Shown here in pieces: positions 2,227 to 16,047 of a stretch of DNA of 16,047 bases. The first letter of the stretch is position 1, and each line of letters begins with the position of its first letter. Source of the DNA: a virus; IMG/VR virus record IMGVR_UViG_3300033171_000037; one strand, given 5' to 3'. The translations under genes were made by a program, and so were the position numbers. Below the pieces are notes generated by a model, which made no database searches, was not told where the DNA came from, and saw nothing but the letters and a program-made list of their open reading frames with translations.

Positions 2227-2819
2227 TCGAGGACTATCTCAACCAGGTTGCCGAGAAGAAGGGAGGAGTCACGACCGAGTTTTACAACGGGCCAGCGACC
2301 GCCGAGTCGATGTTATCTGATATTACGGCCACTGATTACGAAGGCGTCTATTATTTCACGATAATTTGGTTCACGGTGTCAGGTGGAGATCCGGCAACGG
2401 GCCAGATCGTTGTAATAGGCGAGGACCGTTATGGTGATCCTCAAGCCGATTACATCACCATCAACGGGAACGGCGAATATTACACAACGAGAGACGACTG
2501 GGGGAAGATAACCACCATCACAAGCTCGGGACTCGCCGACGAAGGCACCCCGCCGAACATAGTGATCAAAATCTGGGATCAATCCGAGGAGTACGTCGAG
2601 ACCTTCGGCTGGGAAGAGTTCGCGTGTCGATGGGAAGAGAACCCCGTTATCAAGCCATCTGGTGGCGGCTGGGATTACTCTGACGGCAAAGTCTTCACAA
2701 AAGAAGCAATCGAAATCGACGACGTGATCAAGTACAACGGGACCGAGGTCACGGTTTTGGATGTGCGAATCCACAGAAACCTTGATGGTGTTGAGCAATA
2801 CAGAACTGTGGTATACTAA
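2223..2819 (+). CDS. Head-closure / head-tail joining-like protein with an extra N-terminal domain
   Basis: An ATGA overlap couples it to the adaptor gene. The C-terminal ~90 aa (FACRWEENPVIKPSGGG...IEIDDVIKYNGTEVTVLDV) resemble SPP1 gp16-type head-closure proteins. The N-terminal ~100 aa are unassigned. I chose ATG 2223 over the track's GTG 2163. Confidence 0.45.
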   Translation: MIEDYLNQVAEKKGGVTTEFYNGPATAESMLSDITATDYEGVYYFTIIWFTVSGGDPATGQIVVIGEDRYGDPQADYITINGNGEYYTTRDDWGKITTITSSGLADEGTPPNIVIKIWDQSEEYVETFGWEEFACRWEENPVIKPSGGGWDYSDGKVFTKEAIEIDDVIKYNGTEVTVLDVRIHRNLDGVEQYRTVVY

Positions 2820-2820
2820 C

Positions 2821-2852
2821 CCGCCCTGCTAATGTGGGCGGTTATACCTTTT
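2821..2852 (+). terminator. Hairpin plus T-rich tail at the end of the head operon
   Basis: CCGCCC (2821-2826) pairs with GGGCGG (2836-2841), followed by ttataccttttg. Confidence 0.45.
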
Positions 2853-2913
2853 GTTAAACAATTCGTTTAACCTGGCATAGATATTTAACCGATCGTTTAA
2901 CAATTAGTTAAAC
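2853..2913. promoter_or_regulatory. Promoter and operator of the RHH gene: two inverted heptad pairs around a TATA-like box
   Basis: The first pair is GTTAAAC-aattc-GTTTAAC (2853-2871). ATATTTAA follows at 2881-2888. The second pair is GTTTAAC-aatta-GTTAAAC (2895-2913), which abuts ATG 2914. There is no SD. Confidence 0.6.
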
Positions 2914-3387
2914 ATGCCATTCTTAGGGGTCAAGATCTCAGAGGAGCTGGAGACCCTGATCGACGAAGAGGTTAAACGCTCCGATAAGTCCAAAAGCGAC
3001 ATCGTGAGAGATGCGTTAAACCAATATTTTAACGTCGCGATCCCTGAAGGTACAGGCCTAATAGTATTAGATAAAAAAGAGCTTATAAATCTGATTGATA
3101 GCAGACTAGGAGTTAAACCAGAAGTTAAACGCGAGGTTAAACTGATCCCAGAAGTTAAACCAAAAATTAAACAGGACGTTAAACCGGTTAAACAAGATGT
3201 TAAACCAGAGGTTAAACCCACAATTCAGAGGTTATCCGAGGACTCAGCAACACAAGAGAAAATCAAAGAGCTGTGGAGGAGTGGGGAGCGGAACCGACAG
3301 GCAATAGCTCAGCAGGTAGGATACAAGAATCGAACAGTCCAGCAGTACATCAAAGACTGCCTGGAAAGCGGCGAGCTGGAGAAATAA
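2914..3387 (+). CDS. RHH (CopG/Arc/MetJ-like) - repeat linker - HTH DNA-binding protein
   Basis: The N-terminus MPFLGVKISEELETLIDEEVKRSDKSKSDIVRDALNQYF has the strand-helix-helix pattern of RHH domains. The middle is VKPEVKREVKLIPEVKPKIKQDVKPVKQDVKPEVKP repeats. The C-terminus IKELWRSGERNRQAIAQQVGYKNRTVQQYI is HTH-like. Confidence 0.75.
   Translation: MPFLGVKISEELETLIDEEVKRSDKSKSDIVRDALNQYFNVAIPEGTGLIVLDKKELINLIDSRLGVKPEVKREVKLIPEVKPKIKQDVKPVKQDVKPEVKPTIQRLSEDSATQEKIKELWRSGERNRQAIAQQVGYKNRTVQQYIKDCLESGELEK
3112..3217 (+). repeat. Array of GTTAAAC heptads (8 exact copies and 1 near copy) inside the RHH gene
   Basis: Exact copies start at 3112, 3124, 3136, 3154, 3178, 3187, 3199 and 3211. A near copy ATTAAAC starts at 3166. 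Spacing is mostly 12 bp. Confidence 0.9.
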
Positions 3388-3420
3388 GTCGAGGAGCGAC
3401 GGAGATAGAACGGCTGGATT

Positions 3421-4221
3421 TTAGCATATCAGCTTGCTCTGTAATCCACTTTTTTGTGAAGATTTCCGGACTAAGTTATAAAGTTTAATGTTTTTTATAG
3501 AGATTTCTTCGAAATTGGGATTATCCTCGAATTCGATTAAATATATTTTATTTGCATCGATTGGCTTTACAGCGATTGGACAACAGGTAATTCCCGGGAA
3601 ATATTGCCTTGCATATTTAACCAAATTTGATATTTGAACCCATCCAATCATATCACGTGCGTCCGGACCCTTAGCTTCAATTGGTATAATATACTCGTTT
3701 CCATCGGTATCCACACCCACATAGAGATCATCTACCTCTACTTGACCTTCTTCCCTAATTGTGGTCCTAATATGCGACTGGAGATGAAAGCAAGTTATTC
3801 CGGTAAAAACATCAATAAGTCTATTATATCGTATACATGATAAAAGAGCTTGCTCATCGTTTGTAGAATATTTCTCTACAATCTCAGGTAAAGAATTTAG
3901 AATATCGATAGATGTTAGTCCCTCTTGTATTGTTAGATGCGGGGAGCGGCTTATCTTGCAAAACGCAAATTTTCCCTTCCCTTTAGGTGCAATAATCCAA
4001 TTGCCTTTATCAAGTATGGTCTTTGGCAGCGGTCGTCTCGATCGGTAGGTATAAATTATATCCGGAATATTTCTAATAGTTATGTTGAGATCGTTCGCCA
4101 CTTTAGCGACGTCATCTTTATCAAAATTAATAATATCTTCGCCCCCACAATCTGCTAATTTAGCCTGAAACAATTCTATAAGAATTTTATCATATTTTGT
4201 TTCGTTGTTTAAAGTAGTCAT
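3421..4221 (-). CDS. Putative Type II restriction endonuclease (PD-(D/E)XK-like)
   Basis: 266 aa. It lies 11 nt downstream of the methyltransferase gene on the same strand, and its SD GAGGT overlaps the methyltransferase stop. The candidate catalytic signature is VEVDDLYVGVDTDGNEYIIPIEAKG (D...E-x-K). It has the same low GC as the methyltransferase gene. Confidence 0.5.
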   Translation of the reverse strand: MTTLNNETKYDKILIELFQAKLADCGGEDIINFDKDDVAKVANDLNITIRNIPDIIYTYRSRRPLPKTILDKGNWIIAPKGKGKFAFCKISRSPHLTIQEGLTSIDILNSLPEIVEKYSTNDEQALLSCIRYNRLIDVFTGITCFHLQSHIRTTIREEGQVEVDDLYVGVDTDGNEYIIPIEAKGPDARDMIGWVQISNLVKYARQYFPGITCCPIAVKPIDANKIYLIEFEDNPNFEEISIKNIKLYNLVRKSSQKSGLQSKLIC

Positions 4222-4232
4222 TTAGGTCAACC

Positions 4233-5573
4233 TCAATCATTTTTAAGTATCAACACATTTTCATCTATGTTCATTTTTGTTGCTGTAGCTATTCTCGTGC
4301 GCCAAAGTTCGATACCCATGACATTATACCCTAGTGATCCAGCAATGTCCGCAATTAATTCGGCGGTTGGTATATAAACTCTGAAAAAAGACATTTGGTC
4401 ACCAAGGACATAAGCTAACTTAGCATCCTCTGATAAATATGGTTTTAGGCTCTTTAAATGGAGATACATTCCTCCAAAATAATGACGGACGATTTTGTGA
4501 TACATCTTTTCGAATCCTGAAGTTTTATTCAGATATATTCTTTTCTTCTCGATTTCATCTGCTATTTCTGTGATTTTACTATATTCTGCAATACAGTTAC
4601 CATCAACGTCTTTCGCAAAAATATTTCTAGAGTTGCTCCGTAGAAGATCCTCTTTAACGTTCCTTAAATCGCGCTTATTATTGATAAAATCAAGTAAAAT
4701 ACTCTCTAATCTGGTACTTCTCGTATAATCCTTTTCATTTGGGTATGGTGGGGAAGTTATAACGCAATTAATCTGTCCCATCAGTTCCTCTGGCAGACAT
4801 TTATCGATTTTACGTGCGTCCCCTTTGATAATTTTTGAGTTATCAATGCCACTGAATCTCGATACATCTTCGATCATTTGTTGAGTATTAGCTACGTAAT
4901 AATCCAATGCATTAATGTCTTCTTTCGGTTTAGTCCGATAAATCTCCGGGCCAAAAGCTATATTTCCTGCTCGATTTATAATTAAATTTGCTAATGAAAG
5001 TTTAAAAAATGATCGTATTTCGTCATCCTCAATCGAATCAATAACTTTTTTTAGTATTAAAACTTTATTTAACGGCACATCACTTATAAACCCCTTTGGT
5101 AGTATCTTTTGTTTTTCGCTTTTGAGTGTAGGTATAGAATCGACAACAAATAAGTTTAAATTCGTTTTTGGCTCGATTATCGAACGATTATCAGCAATAT
5201 AAAGTTTTTTATAAGACAACAGTGAAGAATTATAAATATAACCTAAATAATTGTGAAGATCCTCTACGTCCAGCATCATATTCGTCTTAACTTTTGCGGC
5301 AAAATATGCAACCGGATTTGCCTCAATTCCATAATTTGGTATATTACTTTTTAAGCATTCTACATTTGTTGTTCCGGTTCCACAAAAAGGATCCAAAACG
5401 ATAGCGTTATGTGAGATATTGAATTTATTTAAATACTGTGTGACTAGATGAGGTGGATATCCCAATACGAATTGATACCACCCGTGTATAGGTAAATCTG
5501 ACATACATATTTGGTTTTTCCCTCCGTTAGATCTTCTGCCAAGGTTACTTTTTTTAACCCCTATGCTTGCCAC
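4233..5573 (-). CDS. DNA N4/N6 amino-methyltransferase (motif order X-I...IV, alpha-like)
   Basis: Motif I is LDPFCGTGTT (aa 60-69). Motif IV is TSPPY (aa 273-277, nt 4743-4754). HGWYQFVLGYPPHLV is motif-X-like. The GTG start at 5573 is preceded by GAGGTG. An alternative start is ATG 5504. Confidence 0.85.
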   Translation of the reverse strand: MASIGVKKSNLGRRSNGGKNQICMSDLPIHGWYQFVLGYPPHLVTQYLNKFNISHNAIVLDPFCGTGTTNVECLKSNIPNYGIEANPVAYFAAKVKTNMMLDVEDLHNYLGYIYNSSLLSYKKLYIADNRSIIEPKTNLNLFVVDSIPTLKSEKQKILPKGFISDVPLNKVLILKKVIDSIEDDEIRSFFKLSLANLIINRAGNIAFGPEIYRTKPKEDINALDYYVANTQQMIEDVSRFSGIDNSKIIKGDARKIDKCLPEELMGQINCVITSPPYPNEKDYTRSTRLESILLDFINNKRDLRNVKEDLLRSNSRNIFAKDVDGNCIAEYSKITEIADEIEKKRIYLNKTSGFEKMYHKIVRHYFGGMYLHLKSLKPYLSEDAKLAYVLGDQMSFFRVYIPTAELIADIAGSLGYNVMGIELWRTRIATATKMNIDENVLILKND

Positions 5574-5806
5574 TTATACGCACCTCATTATACTCCCCAT
5601 TAGATGTACTAAACGTTGACCCCTCAACTTGACCGCAGGGTTTGATATAACAAGAACGTATTATACATTAGAGGGGCACACGCAGGCAAACACAATAAAC
5701 ATCACATCCCTATGTGATGTTGTAACTTGTCAAGCCCATTTGCTTGCTATGCCCCATGCACTTAATAACGAATACCGATTAATTCAGGAAGAAAACTGGA
5801 AATAAA

Positions 5807-5822
5807 CCGAGACATGTCTCGG
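5807..5822. repeat. 16-bp perfect palindrome CCGAGACATGTCTCGG, copy 1
   Basis: Read directly from the sequence. An identical copy lies at 5991-6006. The upstream flanks share TTCAG...AACTGG. Confidence 0.9.
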
Positions 5823-5855
5823 TCTCGGCTTGGCAAAACCAAGACAAGATAGCGA

Positions 5856-5901
5856 TTTTCTCTTTTGTTTATATATATTTTTCGTATATATATCTATATC
5901 T
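5856..5901. other. AT-rich TATA-repeat tract between the twin palindromes
   Basis: The sequence is ttttctcttttgtttatatatatttttcgtatatatatctatatct, and it includes TTTATATA at 5868-5875. Confidence 0.7.
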
Positions 5902-5990
5902 CCGACTAGATAATGTTACATTTTATCAGATGATCGTCACATCTGATGATCTGATTTTTAGCTGCTAGTGATTCCTTCAGAGAACTGGGA

Positions 5991-6006
5991 CCGAGACATG
6001 TCTCGG
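5991..6006. repeat. 16-bp perfect palindrome CCGAGACATGTCTCGG, copy 2
   Basis: Identical to 5807-5822. It lies 10 nt downstream of the stop of the minus-strand gene at 6016-6546. Confidence 0.9.
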
Positions 6007-6015
6007 TTTAAGTTC

Positions 6016-6546
6016 CTAAACTAATCTGATGAGATGACGTTGTTTATGGCGAGGATCTTTGATGACCTGGAAACGATGATCGTCGTCCAATAGCGGTTCT
6101 AATCGATTGATATGCCGTTTTGTCACTCCAAGAAGGCGAGCGGCGTCTTTCGTTGTGGTCTGACGCATCCTAAGCCGTTTCATCTCTGAGAAAAGGCGGT
6201 CCAGGTGGTCGGATGCGGTCTTTTGACTGAGAGCGGGGGCCGGGGCTTCGAGCTTGCTGATCCTCTGGCGATCGTATGCTCTTTCGAGGGCGGCCTCTTC
6301 CCGGAAGGTGTCCAGCTCCACCCTGAGCTTGTGGATCTCTTCTTCCTGGCGCTGGATGTCTCTCTGTCGTTGCTGGGAGATGCACTGGAGCCGGTGAATC
6401 TCATCCTCCTGCTGCTGGAGGACCTCGGCTAAAAGATGCTTAATTCTCGGGACGTCATCGAAAAGCTTATCCGCCAGAAGGGCCATGTTATCCTTGGTCG
6501 AGGACCGGCCTCTGGCATCCGCTAGGGGTTGGTCTACTAATTCCAT
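6016..6546 (-). CDS. Coiled-coil protein with a C-terminal HTH (excisionase/AlpA/MerR-like); candidate regulator
   Basis: 176 aa, with SD GAGGTGAT 6 nt upstream of the ATG. The HTH-like segment is TTKDAARLLGVTKRHINRL. It carries an internal repeat QEDEIHRLQ / QEEEIHKLR. It is transcribed divergently from 6702-7097. Confidence 0.6.
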   Translation of the reverse strand: MELVDQPLADARGRSSTKDNMALLADKLFDDVPRIKHLLAEVLQQQEDEIHRLQCISQQRQRDIQRQEEEIHKLRVELDTFREEAALERAYDRQRISKLEAPAPALSQKTASDHLDRLFSEMKRLRMRQTTTKDAARLLGVTKRHINRLEPLLDDDHRFQVIKDPRHKQRHLIRLV

Positions 6547-6648
6547 TCTACTATCACCTCATTCTATTGTGGTTACATGCGGCTACTGCTTTGTGATTCT
6601 ATCTAAATAATCTTTTTGCCGAGTTCCAAATCCCACAAGCCAGATTAG

Positions 6649-6692
6649 TTATGTGACCCTAGCCACCAAATATATATGGTATGGTCACATAA
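6649..6692. promoter_or_regulatory. Operator: 10-bp inverted repeat TTATGTGACC-N24-GGTCACATAA enclosing a TATA-like box
   Basis: The half-sites are 6649-6658 and 6683-6692. AAATATATAT lies at 6668-6677. ATG 6702 has no SD. Confidence 0.6.
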
Positions 6693-6701
6693 CTATTATA
6701 C

Positions 6702-7097
6702 ATGGCTACGCCGAAGATCATTTACGAAACCACAAGCGGGGAGGAGATCAAGGCCTTGCGAGAGGAGGCCCGGAAGCTGCGAGACGAGGCAGCGAAGCTC
6801 CGGCAGTTCCGGGGAATGGAACCGGCGGCGAGGGAGAGGGAGGCGGAGGCGGCCAGGCTGGAGGGCGAGGCCGAGGACCTGTGGAGCGCGGCGCGGTTGG
6901 AGGCGTTGACGGTCTACCTCGGCCCGGTGGAGAAGATCACCGCGAAGGGGCCGAAGACGTATGAGTACTATTTCGCGTCCTGGAAGATGGGGGATAAGGT
7001 CGTCAATAAGTACATCGGCTCTCCTCGGAAGATGACCCAAAAGGCGGCCACAGAGAAGGCCCGCCAGCTGAAGGCGGAGGCGCTGGCAGTTCTGTGA
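6702..7097 (+). CDS. Hypothetical coiled-coil protein
   Basis: 131 aa with a charged helical N-terminal half. The C-terminal segment GPKTYEYYFASWKMGDKVVNKYIGS is of unknown function. The start looks leaderless. Confidence 0.6.
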   Translation: MATPKIIYETTSGEEIKALREEARKLRDEAAKLRQFRGMEPAAREREAEAARLEGEAEDLWSAARLEALTVYLGPVEKITAKGPKTYEYYFASWKMGDKVVNKYIGSPRKMTQKAATEKARQLKAEALAVL

Positions 7098-7143
7098 TAT
7101 CTTCCAGATTTGGGCGTGAAATATAACAGAACTATCATCAAGG

Positions 7144-7186
7144 AGCTTCGGAAGTGAAGCTTCTCCAACTCTTCTCTCTTTTTTCT
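7144..7186 (+). terminator. Weak hairpin followed by a T-rich run
   Basis: AGCTTC (7144-7149) pairs with GAAGCT (7156-7161), followed by cttctctcttttttct. Confidence 0.3.
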
Positions 7187-7454
7187 AATCGTCCAAAGTG
7201 GGCTTGTTTACAACTCCTGCCCCTGCGTTCCACAGACTATGGAATCTGCCCCCTTCTGTCGCGCAAAGGTATGGGTAAATCGATCAAGTTTGGGCTTATC
7301 CGAGTATCTGCCCTCGGAGATGCGGCGACTGATAGCGTTTTTGTGGACGAAATTTTCAAGTGGACTTATCGATCGGTTATAACAAGTTTATGGCTAACAT
7401 TACATCAACAGACGCCTCAAACATCAAGTATATTTTTATCCTTACTTCATATTT

Positions 7455-7498
7455 CTTATGTAACCAATTGGTCGGTATAGGTGGGCAAGTTACATAAG
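7455..7498. promoter_or_regulatory. Second copy of the operator architecture: CTTATGTAAC-N24-GTTACATAAG
   Basis: The half-sites are 7455-7464 and 7489-7498. The TTATGTRAC core and the 24-nt spacer are the same as at 6649-6692. Confidence 0.6.
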
Positions 7499-7532
7499 AA
7501 AAACGACCCATGGCGGGCGAAGGAGGGTAACT

Positions 7533-7562
7533 TTTAAATAACTTACTCACCCACTTACTCAC
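7533..7562 (+). promoter_or_regulatory. TATA box plus tandem ACTTACTCAC repeats upstream of the zinc-ribbon gene
   Basis: TTTAAATA lies at 7533-7540. ACTTACTCAC occurs at 7541-7550 and 7553-7562. ATG 7563 follows directly, with no SD. Confidence 0.5.
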
Positions 7563-7907
7563 ATGCCTGGAGCGAAATTCGCCCCAATATTGGTCGAATG
7601 CAAAAACTGCGGCCACGAATGGATGTATGGCGGGCAGTCGATGTACTACTGCACATGTCCTGTATGCCACTACAAAAACCTCGTCCCTCTATTTGGTGAG
7701 AGGTGGCATGTTGCAATGGCGCGGTTGGCACAACTGATGAGTGAAAGCGGTATATCTCCAGCTGATGAGTATAAGCACGCCAATTATGTAATATCATTCA
7801 TAAGACGGCTACTAAAAGAGGACGGACTCGATGATTGGCGCGCGGGGCTTGAGACTGACTTGGAGGAGATGAAAAGACGAAGAGCCGAGGCAAAGGCCAT
7901 GATGTAG
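7563..7907 (+). CDS. Zinc-ribbon protein
   Basis: 114 aa. CKNCGH...(18 aa)...CPVCH is a four-Cys ribbon pattern near the N-terminus. Confidence 0.65.
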   Translation: MPGAKFAPILVECKNCGHEWMYGGQSMYYCTCPVCHYKNLVPLFGERWHVAMARLAQLMSESGISPADEYKHANYVISFIRRLLKEDGLDDWRAGLETDLEEMKRRRAEAKAMM

Positions 7908-8000
7908 ATTGATGAAAGTGGTGGTCATCCAATTGGTTTTTATATAATTTCGTTGGATAACATCAAAATCCTTAAATACTTCGCGCCAGATAATAAGGAC

Positions 8001-8031
8001 GGGTGACTTCGGATGGACCCCGAAGTCGCCC
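8001..8031 (+). other. Strong hairpin at the predicted 5' end of the primase leader
   Basis: GGGTGACTTCGG (8001-8012) pairs with CCGAAGTCGCCC (8020-8031) as 12 bp with one G-U pair and a 7-nt loop. CTTAAATA at 7971-7978 sits about 27 nt upstream. Confidence 0.55.
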
Positions 8032-8065
8032 GGGCGAAACTAACACATTTGGGGCTGTGTCAGTT

Positions 8066-8191
8066 ATGAATAGATTCTATTCAAAGGGATATAAACTTCC
8101 CGATTATAGGGAAGATCCGGATAAAGAGATCTCCGGAAGGATTGAAAGAGACCTCAACAGAGAGAGCAAGCAGTGGGGGCGGTCAAAATGA
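8066..8191 (+). CDS. Possible leader micro-ORF 1 (41 aa)
   Basis: It runs from ATG 8066 to TGA 8189-8191, and its stop overlaps ATG 8188 (ATGA). There is no convincing SD. Confidence 0.2.
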   Translation: MNRFYSKGYKLPDYREDPDKEISGRIERDLNRESKQWGRSK

Positions 8192-8277
8192 AGGTGGAAC
8201 CGCCACCCATTGACGATTACTTTCGCCTCGCACGTGGCGAAAAAATAAGAGATATCCTGCGAGAGGGGAGAAGATGA
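8188..8277 (+). CDS. Possible leader micro-ORF 2 (29 aa, MKVEPPPIDDYFRLARGEKIRDILREGRR)
   Basis: It has ATGA overlaps at both ends. Its start overlaps the stop of micro-ORF 1, and its stop TGA 8275-8277 overlaps the primase ATG 8274. Confidence 0.3.
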   Translation: MKVEPPPIDDYFRLARGEKIRDILREGRR

Positions 8278-10859
8278 CCCTCCCCCCGAAGCCTACGGCC
8301 CTTGAAGTCTGGCATCGGAACGCACCCGCTGCCCTGAAGGAGGTCGAAGGCTGGATTCTGTGGAAATATACCCCCGTCAATGGAAAATGGACCAAACCCC
8401 CATTTAACGAGGACGGGAAAAAGATCGACGCCCACGACCCCACAGAATGGATGACCTTTTCCCAGGCAGTCCAGGCCTACCAGCGGGGCGGATTCGACGG
8501 GATCGGGCTCTCTCTCAATGCTATGGAGGCTCTCGCCGGCGTCGACCTCGACCATTGCGTCAAGGGAGGGGAGATCGAGCCGTGGGCGCTGAAGATCGTC
8601 GAGGAGCTGGGAAGCTACGTTGAGATCTCACCGAGCGGTGAGGGGCTCCGAATACTGGGATATGGAAAGCTTCGCCGAGAGGGGCGCAAAAAGGGCAATG
8701 TGGAGGTCTACGATGGGGGCAGGTATCTCACCTTCACCGGCCACAGGCTGGATAGCGCAACCTCTGATATAGAGGACTTCGACGAGGCACTCAATCGAGT
8801 ACACCACCGGATATGGGCCGAGAACCCGAAGATCCCCATCCTCCAAAGCAATGGGGGCGAGGTGGGTGGTGATCTGGCCGAGAGATTCGCAGCCCTCTGC
8901 GATGATGACCCGAAATTTAAGGATAGATACTATTCTCCCGCGAGTGTCGGTGATAGATCTGATCACGAGTTCCACCTCTGCGCCCGGCTATGGGAAGAGG
9001 GGTTCTCCGAGTCTGAGATCAGATCTTTGATGGATTCGTCCCCCCAGGAGAAATGGAGAGAGAGGGGCGCCGACGACTACAGGGACACCACGATCAGAAG
9101 AGCTATTCAATCAGCAGCGGCGCCGAAGGGGAACAGAGGGGCCGAGGGGGCGAGACAGGTCTCCGAGGAGGAGCTCGCCACCATGAAGATGGACAACGGC
9201 CCCAAATTCAAGCTTAATCTACCTGGGAACCACTACTTAACCCGTTATATCGCATACGGGCGGGACGTCTCCGATGCTTATCCCGACTACTGGCTCGCCG
9301 GGGGGCTCTATCAACTGGCCGTGATCGCCGATAAGAAGATATGGGTCAAGCTGAGGCAGGGGACGATCTATCCTAATCTCTACATCTTCGTGGCGGGTAA
9401 ATCCGGACTCAGCCGAAAGACTACAATCATCGACGTCTCCGAGTCTCTCCTCAACGACCACAGGCCGGGGACGGCTGTGAACGCGGTCCCGACGGAGTTC
9501 TCGCCGGAGGCCTTCATCGAGCACCTCGACGCAAGCCCTCATGCCCCATGGGTCAGAGATGAAGCTGCCGGGGTTCTAAAGGCCATGAAACGGGACTACA
9601 TGAGGGGCTTCAAAGATTCGCTGATGCAGTTGTACGATTGCAGACCCATTCATCGAAAGCTTCGGACAAACCGGCGGTCGAAGAGTAAAACCGACTTTGT
9701 AGTGGACGACCCCTATCTCAACGTCCTGTGGGCGACGACGGACTCATCATTAGCGGCCAACACCGAGATCAACGACACCCTAAGCGGCTTCATGGCGAGG
9801 TTCATCTATCACTTTCCGAGGAGGCCTAAAGAGCGATGGCTCCCCCTCGAAGAGGGTGAGGCGATGAACTCCGAGCTGGAGCTCGTCGTCAGGGGCCAAC
9901 TGACGGCTATGGTGAACAAGGTCGCCGAGATGCCGGGGCGCCAACTCAAATTCAGCCCAGAGGCGGCCCAGTACTGGAGCGAATGGCAACTACAGAGAGC
10001 GAGGGAGATCGAGAAGCGGGACGACGCCAACGAGATGCAGATACACAGCCGACTGGTTCCGTTGGTGGCGAAACTGGCGATGCTCTTCGAGCTCGGATCT
10101 TCGGATTTTGATCCGGGATGGCCTCGGCCCATAGGGGTGGGATATGTCGTCGAGGCGTGCAGGCTTGTGGACGAATATTATCAGCCCATGGCCATGGCCG
10201 TCTATGACATGGTAGGCCGGGACCTGGAGAAGAACGTGATCGACCGGATCATAGCGTTTTTGAAGAGGCATGGTGGCGTTTCTACCAAGCGGAAAATATC
10301 CAGGCATGTGAAGATCAAGGCGAGGGAGCTCCAGGAGTATCTCGATACCATGGTCGGGGACGGAACCATCGAGTACTGTGAGATCCAGAACCCCAGGGGC
10401 GAAGCTACGATCAAGGTCGTCCTTAGTGTCGATACTGTATATACAGTCAATAAAGTCATATCTGTCAATACTGTCACTCGTAACACTGAGGATCGAGAGG
10501 ATAATCGTAACACTAAATCTGAAGATAAATTATCTTCTTGTGGGGAAGGTGTTACAGAGGAAGGCCGCAAACTAGGTGACAGTGAATACCCCTGTGACAG
10601 TGGTGACAGTTCCGACAGATTGACAGTATGCCCACCCCCGCAGCCCCCAAAGCCAAAAGCGGCAACAGCTACCGAAAAGACCGAGCCGCCGAGGATATTC
10701 AACCTGAGCATCCCCTACTATCTGGACCTGGGAGGAGGTCAACTCCCCACCGTGAAAGCCCTGATGAAAGATCAGAACTGGCCACAGGATAAGGCAGTAA
10801 TGGCTATCGGGATGCTGGAGCAACAGGGATATTCGAGAGGGTTTAATTGTCCTGATTAG
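8274..10859 (+). CDS. Replication protein: AEP prim-pol domain, PriCT-like helical region, DUF3987/helicase-like NTPase, wHTH and a repeat-rich C-terminal tail
   Basis: 861 aa. The AEP motifs are GVDLDHC (D91/D93), YVEISPSGEGLRILG and NVEVYDGGRYLTFTG. EFHLCARLWEEGFSESEIRSLM is PriCT-like. FVAGKSGLSRKTT and PWVRDEAAG are NTPase-like. ISRHVKIKARELQEYLDTMVGDGTI is wHTH-like. Confidence 0.85.
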   Translation: MTLPPKPTALEVWHRNAPAALKEVEGWILWKYTPVNGKWTKPPFNEDGKKIDAHDPTEWMTFSQAVQAYQRGGFDGIGLSLNAMEALAGVDLDHCVKGGEIEPWALKIVEELGSYVEISPSGEGLRILGYGKLRREGRKKGNVEVYDGGRYLTFTGHRLDSATSDIEDFDEALNRVHHRIWAENPKIPILQSNGGEVGGDLAERFAALCDDDPKFKDRYYSPASVGDRSDHEFHLCARLWEEGFSESEIRSLMDSSPQEKWRERGADDYRDTTIRRAIQSAAAPKGNRGAEGARQVSEEELATMKMDNGPKFKLNLPGNHYLTRYIAYGRDVSDAYPDYWLAGGLYQLAVIADKKIWVKLRQGTIYPNLYIFVAGKSGLSRKTTIIDVSESLLNDHRPGTAVNAVPTEFSPEAFIEHLDASPHAPWVRDEAAGVLKAMKRDYMRGFKDSLMQLYDCRPIHRKLRTNRRSKSKTDFVVDDPYLNVLWATTDSSLAANTEINDTLSGFMARFIYHFPRRPKERWLPLEEGEAMNSELELVVRGQLTAMVNKVAEMPGRQLKFSPEAAQYWSEWQLQRAREIEKRDDANEMQIHSRLVPLVAKLAMLFELGSSDFDPGWPRPIGVGYVVEACRLVDEYYQPMAMAVYDMVGRDLEKNVIDRIIAFLKRHGGVSTKRKISRHVKIKARELQEYLDTMVGDGTIEYCEIQNPRGEATIKVVLSVDTVYTVNKVISVNTVTRNTEDREDNRNTKSEDKLSSCGEGVTEEGRKLGDSEYPCDSGDSSDRLTVCPPPQPPKPKAATATEKTEPPRIFNLSIPYYLDLGGGQLPTVKALMKDQNWPQDKAVMAIGMLEQQGYSRGFNCPD
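10434..10627. repeat. Intragenic block of iterons and palindromes (candidate origin)
   Basis: Elements in order: palindrome ACTGTATATACAGT (10434-10447); ACTGTCAC (10470-10477); TCGTAACACT twice (10478-10487 and 10505-10514); palindrome GAAGATAA-a-TTATCTTC (10521-10537). GTGACAGT occurs three times (10576, 10594, 10603), with degenerate copies at 10613 and 10620. Confidence 0.6.
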
Positions 10860-10868
10860 GACAATTAA
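10843..10868 (+). terminator. 11-bp hairpin spanning the primase stop codon
   Basis: TTAATTGTCCT (10843-10853) pairs with AGGACAATTAA (10858-10868) across the loop GATT. The stop TAG is at 10857-10859. Confidence 0.45.
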
Positions 10869-10869
10869 C

Positions 10870-10885
10870 CAAAGCTATTTATATA
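10870..10885 (+). promoter_or_regulatory. BRE/TATA-like promoter of the packaging operon
   Basis: CAAAGC (10870-10875) is followed by TTTATATA (10878-10885). The box is centred about 27 nt upstream of ATG 10909, which has no SD. Confidence 0.5.
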
Positions 10886-10908
10886 TTGATTATCCTTATA
10901 GTACACTG

Positions 10909-11322
10909 ATGGCTAAAGGCGGTCCTGTCGCCGAGGACGAAGAGAAGGCGATCCTGGAGGCCCTGAAGGCGGGCCGATCCGTCCGGGACGTGGCCGAAGA
11001 GTTTCAGAGAGGGACGGGAACGATATCCCGGATCGCTTCCAGAAACGGCCTGGATCTAGGGGAACGTTCCACCACAAAAAGGGCCGCTCTTATCAAGTCC
11101 TGTTACGCCTCCGAGGACAGGATCAAGCTGATAGGCGAGGCCCTGAACAAAGGCCGGGAGCTTCTGAAAAGCTGCGATAACCCCCGCGATTTTCAGTATC
11201 TGATGACCGGCTTTGCGATTGGCATCGATAAGCGGCGGCTGGAAGAGTCCACCGACCCATCGGCGAGGGGCGGGGAGATCCGCATTTTGTTTGAGAAGAT
11301 GGGTGAGGAGGTGGAGGCGTGA
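10909..11322 (+). CDS. terS: Terminase small subunit
   Basis: 137 aa. It has an N-terminal HTH (ILEALKAGRSVRDVAEEFQRGTGTISRIASRNG) and sits immediately upstream of the large terminase gene, overlapping it. Confidence 0.65.
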   Translation: MAKGGPVAEDEEKAILEALKAGRSVRDVAEEFQRGTGTISRIASRNGLDLGERSTTKRAALIKSCYASEDRIKLIGEALNKGRELLKSCDNPRDFQYLMTGFAIGIDKRRLEESTDPSARGGEIRILFEKMGEEVEA

Positions 11323-12527
11323 CCTTCCAAGTCCCTGTGGGGAAACAGCGGGACTTCTGCCTTCACTCCGACGCCCGGGTCAACCTCGCCCACGGGGCGG
11401 TCAGATCAGCGAAGACCGTCGGGGCCAACGTCCGATGGTTGCGGGCTGTCCTGGAGGCTCCGAGAGACGTTAACCTGCTGATGACCGGGAAGACGTTGAC
11501 GAGCCTGGAGCGAAACGTCCTCCTCCCCATCTCGAAGCTCGTCGGGCCTGACAACTTCGAATACCGGCGGTCCCTGAAGGTCGCCACCATCTACGGGCGG
11601 CCTATCCTCTGTGAGGGTGCCAATGACGAGGCGGCCTATGCGAAGATCGCAGGCCTCACCCTCGGAGGGGCTCTCGTCGATGAGGGCTCCCTAACCCCTG
11701 AGAGCTTCTTTAACATGCTGATCTCTCGTCTCTCGGAGCCCGGCTCCCAGCTCTTCTTAACCACGAATCCCGGCAACCCCGGACACTTTTTAAAGAAACG
11801 ATGGATAGACCGAGAGGGCGAGCTGGACCTCAAGACATGGCATTTCGAGTTGACAGATAACCCCTGGCTGGATCCCGTATACGTCGCTGAGCTGAAGCGC
11901 CAGTTCGGGCCGAGAGGCTCCCTCTTCTATCAGAGGTACATCGACGGCTTGTGGGTGGCTGCTGAGGGCGCCGTTTACCGCAACTTCAACCGAGATCTTC
12001 ACTGCATCCCCCGCCTTCCCGATGGTCGGATCGAGGAGATGAGAGTCGCTGTGGACCCTGGCGCCACCCACCCCACAGCGATGCTGAAAGCGTACCGGCT
12101 AGCCGATAAATGGTACATCGCTGGAGAGTACCGCAAGGCCGACAAGTCCCCGGCTGAGGTCTCGAAGGATCTGAAGAAATTCCTGGCTGGGATGTACCCG
12201 ACCTCGATCGACGTTGACCCGGCGGCCAAAGCTCACCGGCTCCAGTTTGTGGGGGATGGGATCGAGGGCGTCCAGCAGGCAGACAACGACGTCCTCAACG
12301 GGATCCAGAAGGTGATCAACGCCTTCGACCAGGGCTGGCTCTACCTCGTCGGCTGCCCCATGCTGGCCGAGGAGCTGGAAGGCTACCGATGGGACCCCAA
12401 AGCCACCGAGCGGGGCGAGGACGCGCCCATCAAAGAAGACGACGACCTCGCCGACTGCCTTCGCTACCTGGTCAACAGGATCAGCAAGAGCCGCCGAGTT
12501 ACCGATTTTAGGAGGCCTTCAAGATGA
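11319..12527 (+). CDS. terL: Terminase large subunit
   Basis: 402 aa. The GTG start overlaps the terS stop (GTGA) and follows GAGGAGGTGGAGG. The motifs are Walker A-like GAVRSAKT, Walker B GGALVDEGS, the coupling motif LTTNPG, and nuclease acidic motifs VAVDPG and EDDDLADCLRY. Confidence 0.9.
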   Translation: MTFQVPVGKQRDFCLHSDARVNLAHGAVRSAKTVGANVRWLRAVLEAPRDVNLLMTGKTLTSLERNVLLPISKLVGPDNFEYRRSLKVATIYGRPILCEGANDEAAYAKIAGLTLGGALVDEGSLTPESFFNMLISRLSEPGSQLFLTTNPGNPGHFLKKRWIDREGELDLKTWHFELTDNPWLDPVYVAELKRQFGPRGSLFYQRYIDGLWVAAEGAVYRNFNRDLHCIPRLPDGRIEEMRVAVDPGATHPTAMLKAYRLADKWYIAGEYRKADKSPAEVSKDLKKFLAGMYPTSIDVDPAAKAHRLQFVGDGIEGVQQADNDVLNGIQKVINAFDQGWLYLVGCPMLAEELEGYRWDPKATERGEDAPIKEDDDLADCLRYLVNRISKSRRVTDFRRPSR

Positions 12528-13894
12528 CCGTATTCACCACGTTAGATTTTCTCAAACCCGGCCAGAAGTGGCCGCCAGACAAAGACCGGCTGGCTCGATA
12601 CGCAAAGAACCGGCTGCTGATGGAAGGAGACCACGATTTGGTCTTCGCCGGATTGAATGAGGACGACGCCCCCCGGATCATCAAGATGAGGGTCAACTGG
12701 TTCAAGAGGATCTGCACCCTCTTCTCCGATCTAGCTGTGGGGAACCCACCGAAGATCACCGCCGAGGATCAGGCCACGGTGGACAGGATCGCCGACGATA
12801 ACGGCTTCGAGACCCTGGCTTACGACCTCTTCAGCGACCTGATCGCCTTCGGTGATGGGGTCCTCAAGCCTCGATGGGATGGGAAGCGCGGGGTCATCAG
12901 TCGGATCGATCCCCGCCACTGGTTCCCGGTGGTGGACCCCGACGACTCCGGGGCGTTCTCGGCTCACGTTCTGGCCTGGGAGGTCCCCTTCGGCGATGAC
13001 AAGTACGTCAAGGTGGAGATCCACAAGCCCGGAAAGATCGAGCACAGGCTCTTGAAGCTCACCTCTGATGGTAAGGAGATCAAAGAGCCCGTCCCCCTGG
13101 CCACCATCGAGAGGTACTCCAGCCTGAAAGAAGAGGAGGAGACCGGCGTTGCTGGTTTCCTGGTCTTCCCCTTCTCCAACCTGAAGGCCGGGAACGGCGT
13201 CTTCGGGCTGGACGACTTCAAAGACATCTCCGACCTTGTGGAGGAGATCGAGAGGAGGCTGATTAAGGTCTCGGGGACTCTGGACGTCTTCGCCGATCCC
13301 TGGATGTGCGGGCCGTCGGGGCTTAGGGTCCGAGACCCTCTCACCGGCGAGGTCGTGTGGGCTTCCGATGAGAAGTACATCGCCCTTAACGAGGGCGAGT
13401 CCCCGCCAAAGATCCTAACCTGGGATGCTGAGATGGAGGCCACGTTCCGACAGATCGAGACCCTTCTCTCTCAGCTCTACGTCATGGCAGAACTCTCCCC
13501 GGCTGCCTTTGGTGAGACAAAGAACGGGCTCGCCGAGTCGGGAAGCGCCCTCAAGAGGTTGATGCTCCCCACCCTGGCGAAGGTTAACCGGCTGAGGCTC
13601 AGGATCAGGCCGAAGCTCATCGAGGTCCTCAAGACCACAGCAGAACTCGAGGTTGCATCCAGGATGAGCGGGGCTCAGAAGCTCACCACCGTCTCCCTGG
13701 AGTGGAGATCAGCCCTTCCCGTTGATCCTGTGGAAGCGGCCAACGTCGAAAAAACAAAGCGCGACGCCGGAGTCACGTCTCGCCGGTCCAGCATATCCAG
13801 GCTGATGGAAGGCGCATCAGAGAAGGACATCGACGCCGAAGTCGCCAGTATCGAGGAGGAAGAGGACCTCTTCAAGCGTGAGATAATGGTATGA
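12524..13894 (+). CDS. Portal protein
   Basis: 456 aa. An ATGA overlap couples it to terL, and AGGAGG lies upstream. Its size and its position between terL and the MuF-like gene fit a portal. Confidence 0.8.
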   Translation: MTVFTTLDFLKPGQKWPPDKDRLARYAKNRLLMEGDHDLVFAGLNEDDAPRIIKMRVNWFKRICTLFSDLAVGNPPKITAEDQATVDRIADDNGFETLAYDLFSDLIAFGDGVLKPRWDGKRGVISRIDPRHWFPVVDPDDSGAFSAHVLAWEVPFGDDKYVKVEIHKPGKIEHRLLKLTSDGKEIKEPVPLATIERYSSLKEEEETGVAGFLVFPFSNLKAGNGVFGLDDFKDISDLVEEIERRLIKVSGTLDVFADPWMCGPSGLRVRDPLTGEVVWASDEKYIALNEGESPPKILTWDAEMEATFRQIETLLSQLYVMAELSPAAFGETKNGLAESGSALKRLMLPTLAKVNRLRLRIRPKLIEVLKTTAELEVASRMSGAQKLTTVSLEWRSALPVDPVEAANVEKTKRDAGVTSRRSSISRLMEGASEKDIDAEVASIEEEEDLFKREIMV

Positions 13895-14796
13895 GACAGC
13901 TCACTATCGAAGAGATCAGGACCCTAACCGACTTCCAGAAGCGGTTAAAGCTCGGCATAGTCACGAACCCCACAGCGAAGGGGCGGGCGCTCCTCATGTC
14001 CATCTCCCTGGATGTGGAGGACGTGGCCTCTATGCCGCTCCGAGACCTGGCTTACTACATGGCCGCCTATAACGAAGGAATCCCGGTGGAGGTCGTGTCT
14101 CGTCTCGTCCGGGAAAAGGACCCCCTGGTTGAGAAATTCGAGCGGCGGCTGTGGTCGGATATGGCTGATCCCAGCTCGAAATATTATCTCGGCCTCCCCT
14201 ACAAAAACCAGGCAGAGGCCACCATCCACAAGCTCGAAGGACTGGACCTCTACGCATCCTTCCCATCAAAACGAGAACTCGATCCCCTGGTTGACGAGTA
14301 CCTCTCGAAGCGCGGCGGGGCCTTCATCAAGTCTGTGGGGGCTTCTGGCCGAAATGAAGTACGTCGAATCCTGATCGAGTCATATCGAGAGACCGGAACA
14401 TGGGAAGCTTTTGATAAGAAGTTCAGAGAAGAGTTCAGCTATTTACAGCGCTGGAAACGATACCAGATTTACCGAACAGAGCACGCCCTCGCCTCCAATT
14501 CAGCTTATTTCAACATCGCAGATCAGATAGAAGCGATAGATGGGTTCAATATCATTTTAGGGCCTCGCCCCTGTCCGTGGTGTCAGTTCATGGCCTCGTT
14601 TACGCACACCAGGGGAGAGGATAGGCCCCCTTATCATCCGTCGTGTCAGTGCCTTCCCTCGCCCGTTTTCAAGGGGGTGGGTGGTCGTCTAGGCCGCAAG
14701 GTCGATTCTGATGCACTGAGTTTCATGAAGGAAAATGAATACTTGAGGCTGAAACAAAATTACGCAACCTTCCAAACCGCTACAGCTATTTCATAA
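13891..14796 (+). CDS. Minor head protein, Mu F / SPP1 gp7 family
   Basis: 301 aa. An ATGA overlap couples it to the portal gene. It carries the signature RPCPWCQFMA...DRPPYHPSCQCLPSP (P-x-H-P-x-C-x-C). Confidence 0.85.
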   Translation: MRQLTIEEIRTLTDFQKRLKLGIVTNPTAKGRALLMSISLDVEDVASMPLRDLAYYMAAYNEGIPVEVVSRLVREKDPLVEKFERRLWSDMADPSSKYYLGLPYKNQAEATIHKLEGLDLYASFPSKRELDPLVDEYLSKRGGAFIKSVGASGRNEVRRILIESYRETGTWEAFDKKFREEFSYLQRWKRYQIYRTEHALASNSAYFNIADQIEAIDGFNIILGPRPCPWCQFMASFTHTRGEDRPPYHPSCQCLPSPVFKGVGGRLGRKVDSDALSFMKENEYLRLKQNYATFQTATAIS

Positions 14797-14814
14797 GCTA
14801 TTCTACAAAAAGGA

Positions 14815-14828
14815 CAAAGCTTTAAATA
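14815..14828 (+). promoter_or_regulatory. BRE/TATA-like promoter of the scaffold-capsid-connector operon
   Basis: CAAAGC (14815-14820) is followed by TTTAAATA (14821-14828). This is the same CAAAGC plus TTTAWATA arrangement seen upstream of terS. Confidence 0.45.
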
Positions 14829-14887
14829 CTATCCCGATAAGAATATACAATTAGGCAAACGAGGCCGTAAACTCGGAGATCGTGAAT

Positions 14888-15316
14888 ATGTCCGGCGATG
14901 ATGGTGAAAAGAAATTTACTCAGGCTGATGTGGATCGGATAGTCCAGGACCGGCTCGCCCGTGAGAAGACGAAATACGAAGAGCTGGAGGCCGAACGGGA
15001 CGCCTTGAAAGACAAGGTGGCCGAGTACGAAAAGACCTCCCTGGACTCTCTGAAGACGAAGATCGCCACCGACCTGAAACTCCCTCCGGCCCTGGCCAGC
15101 AGACTGGCGGGGACGACCGAGGCGGAGCTGAAGGCAGACGGCGAGAAGCTGCTGAAAGAGATCGGACCCAAAGAGCCTGTGGGCGGCGGTGGCAATCCAG
15201 CGGGCGAGGTAAAGAAACCTCTCACTCGCGAAGCTGTGAAGGCCATGAAGCCAGACGAGATCATCGCAAACATGGACCAGATCAAGAGCCAGATGAAAGA
15301 AGGCTCATTGAGGTAA
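14888..15316 (+). CDS. Scaffolding protein (complete copy)
   Basis: I prefer ATG 14888 (GGAG 9 nt upstream) to the track's GTG 14882. The protein is 142 aa, charged and helical, and lies upstream of the capsid gene. Confidence 0.65.
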   Translation: MSGDDGEKKFTQADVDRIVQDRLAREKTKYEELEAERDALKDKVAEYEKTSLDSLKTKIATDLKLPPALASRLAGTTEAELKADGEKLLKEIGPKEPVGGGGNPAGEVKKPLTREAVKAMKPDEIIANMDQIKSQMKEGSLR

Positions 15317-16047
15317 AATCGCATGGCATTAACGAATTTCATAGGGGAGGTTTGGGCCGCCCAAATCCTCCAGAGTCTCCAGAAGTCTATGGTCTACGGT
15401 CAGGCCGGAGTAGCAAACAGAGACTACGAAGGTACCATCCGGGGCAAAGGCGACACGGTGAGGATCACCGCCCACGGTCCGATAACGATCGATAACTACG
15501 ACAAGACCACGGGGATAGGCGACCCTGAAGACCTCGACGACGCTTCAACCACGCTGGAAATAACTCAGGCGAAGTACTTCAACTTCAGAATCGACGACAT
15601 AGACAAGGCGCAGATGAACGTTAAGCTGATGGAGAGCGCCACAAGAGACGCGGCCTACCAGCTTGCAGACGTGGCCGATCAGTACATAGTCGCCCAGATG
15701 GTAGCGGGTGCCGGGAACGCTGTGGGGGCGGATGGATCTGACAAGATCTTTGACGGAACCACCGACCTTGTAACCGAGGAGCTTCTGTCAGTCAAACAGC
15801 TTCTCGATGAAGACAACGTACCCTCTGAAGGCCGGTTTGTGGTGTTTCCGCCTTGGGTTATCAAGTGGCTTCTCCAGGAAGACGCAATCGTTAACCCCAC
15901 GTGGTCCGGTGTGGAGAAGGCCATGTTGAACGGCGAGATCGCGAAGCTTTTCGGCTTCAGTATCCTTCAGTCCAACAACGTACCGAACACGGCGGGCGAC
16001 CACTACAAGGTCGTTGCTGGAGTGGCGAGGGCGACGACTTTCGCCGA
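14920..16047. repeat. Terminal redundancy, copy 2 (identical to 1-1128)
   Basis: Same evidence as copy 1. This is consistent with wrap-around of a circular 14,919-bp molecule. Confidence 0.95.
15323..16047 (+). CDS. Major capsid protein, 3'-truncated duplicate of 404-1128
   Basis: Identical to the first copy, and cut by the window end. Confidence 0.8.
   Translation, partial: MALTNFIGEVWAAQILQSLQKSMVYGQAGVANRDYEGTIRGKGDTVRITAHGPITIDNYDKTTGIGDPEDLDDASTTLEITQAKYFNFRIDDIDKAQMNVKLMESATRDAAYQLADVADQYIVAQMVAGAGNAVGADGSDKIFDGTTDLVTEELLSVKQLLDEDNVPSEGRFVVFPPWVIKWLLQEDAIVNPTWSGVEKAMLNGEIAKLFGFSILQSNNVPNTAGDHYKVVAGVARATTFA

Follow-up and report, generated by a model that had tools for sequence, protein, structure and literature searches.

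Opposed arrays of six 9-bp iterons within a primase-helicase gene form a probable replication origin in mobile elements of Methanotrichaceae

Near the 3' end of a primase-helicase gene carried on a 16,047-nt stretch of viral DNA (one strand of IMG/VR record IMGVR_UViG_3300033171_000037, hereafter the window), the sequence turns into a dense succession of short repeats while the reading frame stays open. Is this regularity kept for the sake of the DNA or of the encoded peptide, and, if of the DNA, what does it do? A sequence-only reading had proposed a candidate origin embedded in the gene. The repeats resolve into a block, 10422-10630, made of two facing arrays of 9-bp units around a spacer and starting right after the codons of a predicted winged helix. 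The block is almost certainly a cis-acting DNA element, and it is probably the replication origin of the element; the best-supported account is a self-loading primase-helicase origin whose iterons would be read by the adjacent winged helix.

Units of the form nnnnnnGTC make up the left array (in order CTTAGTGTC GATACTGTA TATACAGTC AATAAAGTC ATATCTGTC AATACTGTC), and their minus-strand reading is of the GACAGTATT type. The right array holds six inverted units of the form GACAGTnnn (in order GGTGACAGT GAATACCCC TGTGACAGT GGTGACAGT TCCGACAGA T-TGACAGTA), one of them 8 nt long, which puts the last copy in another reading frame. Coordinates are collected in Table 1. The left array, starting -6 to 0 nt relative to the end of the winged helix, is the top 9-bp periodicity peak genome-wide, about 4.9 standard deviations (sd) above the mean. 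All four exact copies of GTGACAGT in the window fall within 10470-10610 (shuffled sequences lead one to expect 0.20, and none of 200 shuffles reached four); with one mismatch allowed, the count in the window is not significant (9 versus 7.5 expected). The G+C content of the block is 0.418, versus 0.572 in the remainder of the gene. Within the spacer, two direct copies of TCGTAACACT represent a second, iteron-like motif (GTAACACT resembles GTGACAGT), and GTGTTAC is an inverted copy of the GTAACAC motif; these three may be inner degenerate sites of an expanded spacer peculiar to the family of the window.

On re-reading the sequence, every element that the sequence-only reading had listed was found where it had been placed, including CTGTCA (10462), ACTGTCAC (10470-10477) and the TCGTAACACT pair, and the frame is uninterrupted through the block, with the quoted peptide correct. 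The count of three exact copies of GTGACAGT (10576, 10594 and 10603) and two degenerate ones (10613 and 10620) is accurate for that string, but it undercounts what are six phased 9-mers per side. Two perfect palindromes, the 14-bp ACTGTATATACAGT (10434-10447) and GAAGATAAaTTATCTTC (10521-10537), are likewise present in the window but not conserved: close relatives about 80-85% identical across the region lack them. We reject them as functional elements, since they seem to have arisen by chance or as a by-product of the units.

The earlier reading had made the origin depend on finding the repeats in close relatives with an otherwise conserved primase, and the repeats are in fact kept in every relative examined, whether close or distant. 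Across eight close relatives, conservation is higher at the GACAG/CTGTC core positions than elsewhere in the units (0.92 versus 0.78, p = 0.0016), and the amino-acid divergence of the block is high. Divergence at third codon positions of the block is not globally below that of the helicase domain; the constraint is restricted to the iteron cores. Codon choice in the linker block is aberrant, AGT supplying 4 of 9 serine codons and ACT 5 of 8 threonine codons, versus 6% each in the other plus-strand genes. The second unit of the right array reads GAGGACACG in several close relatives (L002, L003, L007 and L009). The TCGTAACACT pair is kept, with its second copy inverted in L005 and L006, and six of the seven bases of GTGTTAC are invariant in the eight relatives, the first G being replaced by A in L004, L005 and L006.

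The decisive one of four lines indicating selection on the DNA comes from distant relatives. Sixteen distant loci, with helicase cores 41-60% identical to that of the window, were read by eye, and a metagenomic scan gave 80 loci, 73 of them usable, which reduce to 47 distinct array pairs. The same layout was found wherever the downstream sequence sufficed: in all 16 distant loci there are two arrays of about six 9-bp units each, the left one matched by its reverse complement on the right. The units themselves are lineage-specific in sequence (GACAGT, GACGTTGG, CTACGTT, GGGACATTA, GACGGTAT and ATACTAAAT are examples), and left and right change together, as in the pairs ACCAACGTC / GACATTGGT, GTAGATAAC / (T)TATCTAC-type, GTCCCTAAT / ATTAGGGAC-type and ATACCGTC / GACGGTAT, among others. 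Among the 47 metagenomic variants, one of the arrays is the top periodicity peak of the whole locus in 45, and the similarity of the two array profiles is greater in reverse-complement than in direct orientation in 46 (mean 0.77 versus 0.35, Wilcoxon p = 1.5e-9). The modal count is six units per side, with periodicity dropping to background exactly beyond six; the left array starts a median of 8 nt past the end of the winged helix, and the median start-to-start distance of 89 nt leaves about 35 bp for the spacer. Spacers of the other hand-read lineages measure 14-47 bp, with a G+C content of 0.27-0.50.

The reading frame is open through both arrays in 41 of the 47 variants, and stop codons occur in or before the arrays in the other six. 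Four hand-read lineages likewise have interrupted or non-coding arrays: those of L025 are intergenic, those of L030 have TAG within their units and come after the stop codon, L033 has an in-frame TGA within its right array, and in L038 the frame is broken. Because some lineages have stop codons in or before their arrays, the peptide is incidental. This agrees with the earlier suggestion that the DNA is under selection and the peptide tolerated, for which the reverse-complement arrays, the aberrant codons and the predicted disorder of the peptide also speak.

The protein with which the arrays travel is ordered as an N-terminal archaeo-eukaryotic primase (AEP) type primase-polymerase with a helix bundle, a DUF3987 P-loop core, a winged helix, a disordered linker and a small C-terminal domain. 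Its N-terminus is homologous to the NrS-1 primase-polymerase (6a9w, E = 9e-21), its primase and helix-bundle domain to PriRep5 of the staphylococcal pathogenicity island (SaPI) SaPI5 (7ola; profile E = 1.5e-61), and aa 407-644 form the helicase core (Pfam, E = 1.8e-23). An NCBIfam scan of the protein found nothing, and by sequence the helicase and winged-helix part gave no match in the PDB other than a marginal one to Z-alpha (E = 0.23). The winged helix that had been placed just upstream of the repeats is borne out by structure prediction: AlphaFold2 models it with a predicted local distance difference test (pLDDT) score of 84-97 and the topology strand-helix-helix-strand-wing-strand, closing the confident stretch of aa 560-719. 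Foldseek matches to it in the PDB are weak (best E = 4e-3); nearly all of those listed are winged-helix DNA binders or proteins containing one, among them a ROK repressor, TFE-alpha, MarR, PadR, the winged helix of Orc1/Cdc6 and Z-alpha. Between it and the C-terminal domain, AlphaFold2 predicts a disordered linker that coincides with the array block and carries the repeats as a tripeptide periodicity (xTV... / GDS...). The C-terminal domain belongs to no Pfam family.

One locus, L013, encodes an unrelated replication protein, a primase-helicase of 1001 aa (L013 1677-4682), which has a winged helix of its own followed by inverted iteron sets (TTCTGTA(G) / CTACAGAA) in the linker and then by a 69% identical copy of the small C-terminal domain of the window. 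The replication protein is modular, and the origin linker would seem to be a junction for domain shuffling. At the C-termini of the proteins P0013, P0017, P0024 and P0033 (loci L014, L015 and L037), a Cys-rich, zinc-ribbon-like module follows the iteron linker; its pattern, RKEDPGFQKF...C..C...C..C, stands in place of the helical domain of the window. Close relatives, L006 among them, have a different primase domain but retain the origin together with the helicase and the winged helix.

The arrays follow the primase-helicase gene with or without terminase genes downstream, and are also found in long chromosomal contigs. At least 12 hand-read loci (L014, L015, L016, L026 and L033-L040) have arrays but no TerS, TerL or portal match in about 0.4-6 kb downstream. 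Only in one close relative, L041, has the middle region been exchanged: it is 99.3% identical to the window over 8265-14919, has unrelated DNA in place of 2816-8264, and retains the array block. The proposed assignment as origin is based on this strict linkage to the end of the winged helix, on the independence from packaging genes, and on the match to the architecture of SaPI origins.

SaPI origins have 6-12 short iterons immediately 3' of rep, in opposed halves around an AT-rich centre, and a hexameric, self-loading Rep binds these iterons through its C-terminal winged helix; two such hexamers have been proposed (PMC9371898). The window and its relatives likewise have multiple short direct repeats, six 9-bp units per side, in opposed sets flanking an AT-richer centre; in the window these lie directly 3' of the winged-helix codons of a primase-helicase whose winged helix is predicted to be C-terminal to the helicase. 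Homology to PriRep5 was seen in the primase and helix-bundle domain, and the helicase and winged-helix part gave no sequence match to any SaPI Rep. The systems differ in that the host here is archaeal (Methanotrichaceae), the helicase is of the DUF3987 type rather than SF3 (superfamily 3) or MCM-like as in the SaPI Reps, the units are strictly phased at 9 bp with six per side, and the putative origin usually lies within the open reading frame (ORF) rather than downstream of it.

An origin inside an initiator gene has a precedent in phage lambda, whose ori lies in the middle of gene O with four to six iterons, extra iterons adding residues to the initiator (PMC7466680). As in lambda, the iterons of the window lie inside the ORF of the initiator and encode an inter-domain linker. 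Lambda has one direct series of iterons with an AT-rich tract on one side, in contrast to the two inverted sets around a spacer seen here; its O protein has an N-terminal DNA-binding domain and, being neither helicase nor primase, recruits the host DnaB via P, whereas the initiator of the window has its own helicase. The iterons of lambda are about 19 bp each and internally palindromic, and in lambdoid phages both the iterons and the DNA-binding domain of the initiator are lineage-specific.

ORF904 of the Sulfolobus plasmid pRN1 combines an AEP primase, an SF3 helicase and a C-terminal winged helix, with the origin directly 3' as an inverted-repeat structure of roughly 100 nt in which the authors state that there is no iteron structure; replication proteins of the phage BIP-1 type have similar stem-loops 3' of the gene (PMC4234260). 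Both pRN1 and the window are archaeal mobile elements with an inverted-repeat origin (putative here) 3' of a winged-helix primase-helicase, but in the window tandem periodicity dominates, the helicase is not SF3, and the hairpin potential is not significant (z = -1.5). The alpha protein of P4 joins in one polypeptide a bacterial primase of Toprim type, a helicase and a C-terminal winged-helix origin binder (PMC4234260). Primase, helicase and C-terminal winged helix in one protein, with short repeated origin sites, are features that P4 shares with the window, apart from having a Toprim primase where the window has an AEP one. The P4 sites are octamers, not phased sextets, and its ori and crr are located at a distance from the alpha gene.

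In the proposed mechanism, the 9-bp iterons would be recognized by the winged helix that closes the helicase module C-terminally; each opposed sextet would nucleate one self-loading helicase ring, giving two rings in opposite orientation; the lower-G+C spacer between the rings would melt; and the AEP domain of the same protein would make the first primers, for bidirectional replication. Binding partner, ring stoichiometry, melting and priming are all inferred. Since a further small domain is fused downstream in the lineage of the window, the origin must there be read through in frame, and would be tolerated as a disordered, tripeptide-periodic linker.

Several observations weigh against this assignment or against parts of the mechanism. 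The DUF3987 core has no sequence match to any solved structure, the SaPI Reps included, and the hexamer and the self-loading steps are for that reason assumed. Covariation of winged helix and iterons beyond shared ancestry is not significant (partial Mantel r = 0.13, p = 0.11). A spacing of 9 bp is unusually tight for iterons bound by winged helices, and the spacer of the window is only moderately AT-rich (G+C 0.42). The GC skew gives no information on the position of the origin, as its sign changes track gene orientation and a low-G+C cassette in this co-directionally transcribed, 15-kb genome. Finally, a second structured AT-rich region exists at 5800-6010, where a TATATA-rich tract and a repeated ATCAGATGATC / ATCTGATGATC motif lie between two copies of the palindrome CCGAGACATGTCTCGG. 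This region may have a regulatory role or be another candidate for the origin, the latter being less likely because the region is absent from L041.

A bolder version of the origin reading takes the six-plus-six phased design as a stoichiometric platform, with one iteron per winged helix of a hexamer and two opposed rings, on which the nascent protein would load in cis. Successive 9-bp sites lie about 51 degrees apart around the DNA helix, near the 60 degrees between ring subunits, and, because the origin sits inside the linker codons of its own initiator, such loading would take place during coupled transcription and translation. We regard this as a speculative and rather doubtful extension. 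If it holds, tripeptide periodicity beside a winged helix could serve as a general origin signature for uncultivated archaeal viruses and plasmids.

Alternatively, the arrays might act through their inverted symmetry, as a long, imperfect hairpin or cruciform in single-stranded or supercoiled DNA or as a regulatory structure in the mRNA, rather than as duplex sites. A precedent is the pRN1 origin, where a 100-nt stem-loop lies 3' of the gene of a primase-helicase with a terminal winged helix (PMC4234260). Of 13 other lineages, 11 have an array-spacer-array segment whose folding surpasses that of its shuffles by at least 2.4 sd (z = -2.5 to -8.3, with no shuffle reaching the same stability); L031 is a borderline case (z = -2.2, equalled in stability by 4 of 200 shuffles), and in L028 the folding is not significant (z = -1.3). 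The block of the window, however, folds no better than shuffles (17 of 200 as stable). A hairpin leaves unexplained the strict 9-bp tandem periodicity, the length of six units, and the conserved core with variable remainders of the units, and a stable mRNA hairpin within the ORF would impede translation of the C-terminal domain. A hairpin is also compatible with an origin and in that respect is partly a variant of the explanation preferred here, not a true rival. As an explanation in its own right we consider it unlikely; since most other lineages fold as a hairpin but the window does not, extrusion is possibly an accessory rather than the selected feature.

Quite improbable, too, is that the arrays are binding sites serving some other function, as a partition centromere or as operators of the downstream late operon, and merely find a convenient place at the end of the primase-helicase gene. 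Plasmid centromeres are typically phased short tandem repeats to which RHH or winged-helix proteins bind, the window encodes a ribbon-helix-helix (RHH) protein, and AspA, the centromere binder of pNOB8, is in the Foldseek list for the winged helix; but scans against Pfam, PHROG and NCBIfam found no partition NTPase, and L041 retains the block although its RHH gene has been lost in the replacement of all of 2816-8264. The late genes begin 250-450 bp downstream of the block, but a conserved archaeal TATA box with its own repeated ATTGTCC motif lies separately at 10843-10900, and in other lineages the arrays precede unrelated genes.

A packaging site (pac or cos) for the small terminase subunit, whose candidate gene starts about 280 bp downstream, is a more remote prospect still. 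Such sites often lie in or just upstream of terS and may consist of repeated opposed sites (lambda cosB and SPP1 pac are examples), a helix-turn-helix (HTH) gene does directly precede TerL in the window, and the gene order from primase to terminase recurs in several lineages. The arrays, however, are equally present in the hand-read loci mentioned above that have no packaging match downstream, and their position is tied to the end of the winged helix (median +8 nt), not to the start of terS; an insertion of about 250 bases between the end of the gene and terS in L007 and L009 has left the arrays where they were.

That the repeats are selected as a low-complexity tripeptide linker, the DNA regularity being a by-product, is in keeping with the frame open through both arrays in most variants and with the predicted disorder of the segment, but it is hardly credible and is effectively refuted by the non-coding lineages. 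A reverse-complement symmetry found in essentially every lineage cannot come from selection on the peptide, stop codons lie inside the arrays of some lineages, one unit of the window is out of frame, and rare codons run throughout the block.

Full-text searches that paired DUF3987 with iterons, or Methanothrix viruses with capsid and primase, turned up no earlier description, and broader ones gave only the analogues cited above. The system is of a known kind; it is new in being archaeal, in having a DUF3987 helicase, in its strict phasing at 9 bp with six units on each side, and in the frequent in-frame, tripeptide-periodic embedding. Methanothrix and its relatives are key methanogens; to our knowledge they have no cultured virus, and very few archaeal viruses or plasmids have known replication origins. 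The arrays give a whole family of mobile elements from Methanotrichaceae a concrete origin candidate defined by sequence, with at least 47 variants of one architecture, and would link that family mechanistically to the self-loading helicases of staphylococci. The variants are also natural specificity variants with which to probe how a winged helix reads its iterons and how many sites are needed per ring. For annotation, and for the prediction of origins in metagenomic data, they show that unusual tripeptide repetition in a protein can reflect a signal in the underlying DNA.

Table 1. Features of the window discussed in the text (positions counted from its first nucleotide)
Feature	Position	Strand	Basis or remark
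Whole block, two facing 9-bp arrays and spacer	10422-10630		starts right after winged-helix codons
Left iteron array, six 9-bp units (nnnnnnGTC)	10422..10475	-	sequence, periodicity, homologous arrays in all relatives
Spacer, 102 bp, G+C 0.42	10476..10577		candidate unwinding region
Right iteron array, six inverted units (GACAGTnnn)	10575..10630 (GAC-initial units 10578-10630)	+	
Two direct TCGTAACACT copies	10478-10487, 10505-10514	+	27 bp (3 x 9) apart
GTGTTAC, inverted copy of GTAACAC motif	10549..10555	-	
Primase-helicase gene, 861 aa	8274..10859	+	ORF, Pfam DUF3987, PHROG primase/helicase families
Winged helix (predicted)	10233..10424	+	AlphaFold2 and Foldseek
Disordered linker codons, aa 721-803 (predicted)	10434..10682	+	pLDDT below 50, model residues 162-244 (AlphaFold2)
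Small C-terminal helical domain, about aa 806-850 (predicted)	10689..10823	+	pLDDT 70-80
11-bp perfect hairpin, TTAATTGTCCT gatt AGGACAATTAA	within 10843-10900		primase stop codon in loop
Conserved archaeal TFB-recognition element (BRE)/TATA-like AAGCTATTTATATA	10871-10884		probable late operon promoter
137-aa HTH protein, candidate terminase small subunit	10909-11322		directly upstream of TerL
Head/packaging genes: HK97-type capsid, scaffold-like, portal, head-morphogenesis, large terminase	1-2819 and 10909-15316		
RHH protein	2914-3387		
Low-G+C methyltransferase cassette: 446-aa N6/N4 DNA methyltransferase-like gene and 266-aa gene	3421-5573	-	
Structured AT-rich intergenic region	5800-6010		16-bp perfect palindrome CCGAGACATGTCTCGG twice (about 5808, 5990)

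Beyond the arrays, the hairpin listed in Table 1 is followed by the highly conserved AAGCTATTTATATA together with a third ATTGTCC-like motif (GATTATCCT), some 25 nt ahead of the ATG at 10909; the stretch 10843-10900 is probably a regulated, near-leaderless promoter of the packaging and head operon, separate from the arrays.

Positions 1-1128 of the window are identical to 14920-16047, an exact terminal direct repeat of 1128 bp that gives a unit of 14,919 bp. The window thus exceeds one unit, and the genome is circular or circularly permuted, of roughly 14.9 kb; the 20-kb contig of L041 likewise spans more than one unit. The products encoded in these about 15 kb include no recognizable tail protein, and a BLAST search against deposited phages gave no match. 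Head genes without recognizable tail genes, together with a SaPI-like replication module, resemble the gene set of the capsid-forming phage-inducible chromosomal islands, satellites for which tails are all that is borrowed; if the likeness holds, the element would be their archaeal counterpart. The methyltransferase cassette has a G+C content of 0.27-0.39, versus about 0.57 in the flanking DNA, and appears to be a recent acquisition with a role in modification or restriction-modification.

The source names of homologues of the primase-helicase include Methanothrix, and related loci sit in assemblies of Methanothrix, Methanocrinis and other Methanotrichaceae. A single related locus (L035) is in a bin labelled as bacterial (Syntrophomonas), all others being from Methanotrichaceae; this placement is probably a binning artefact from syntrophic co-occurrence.

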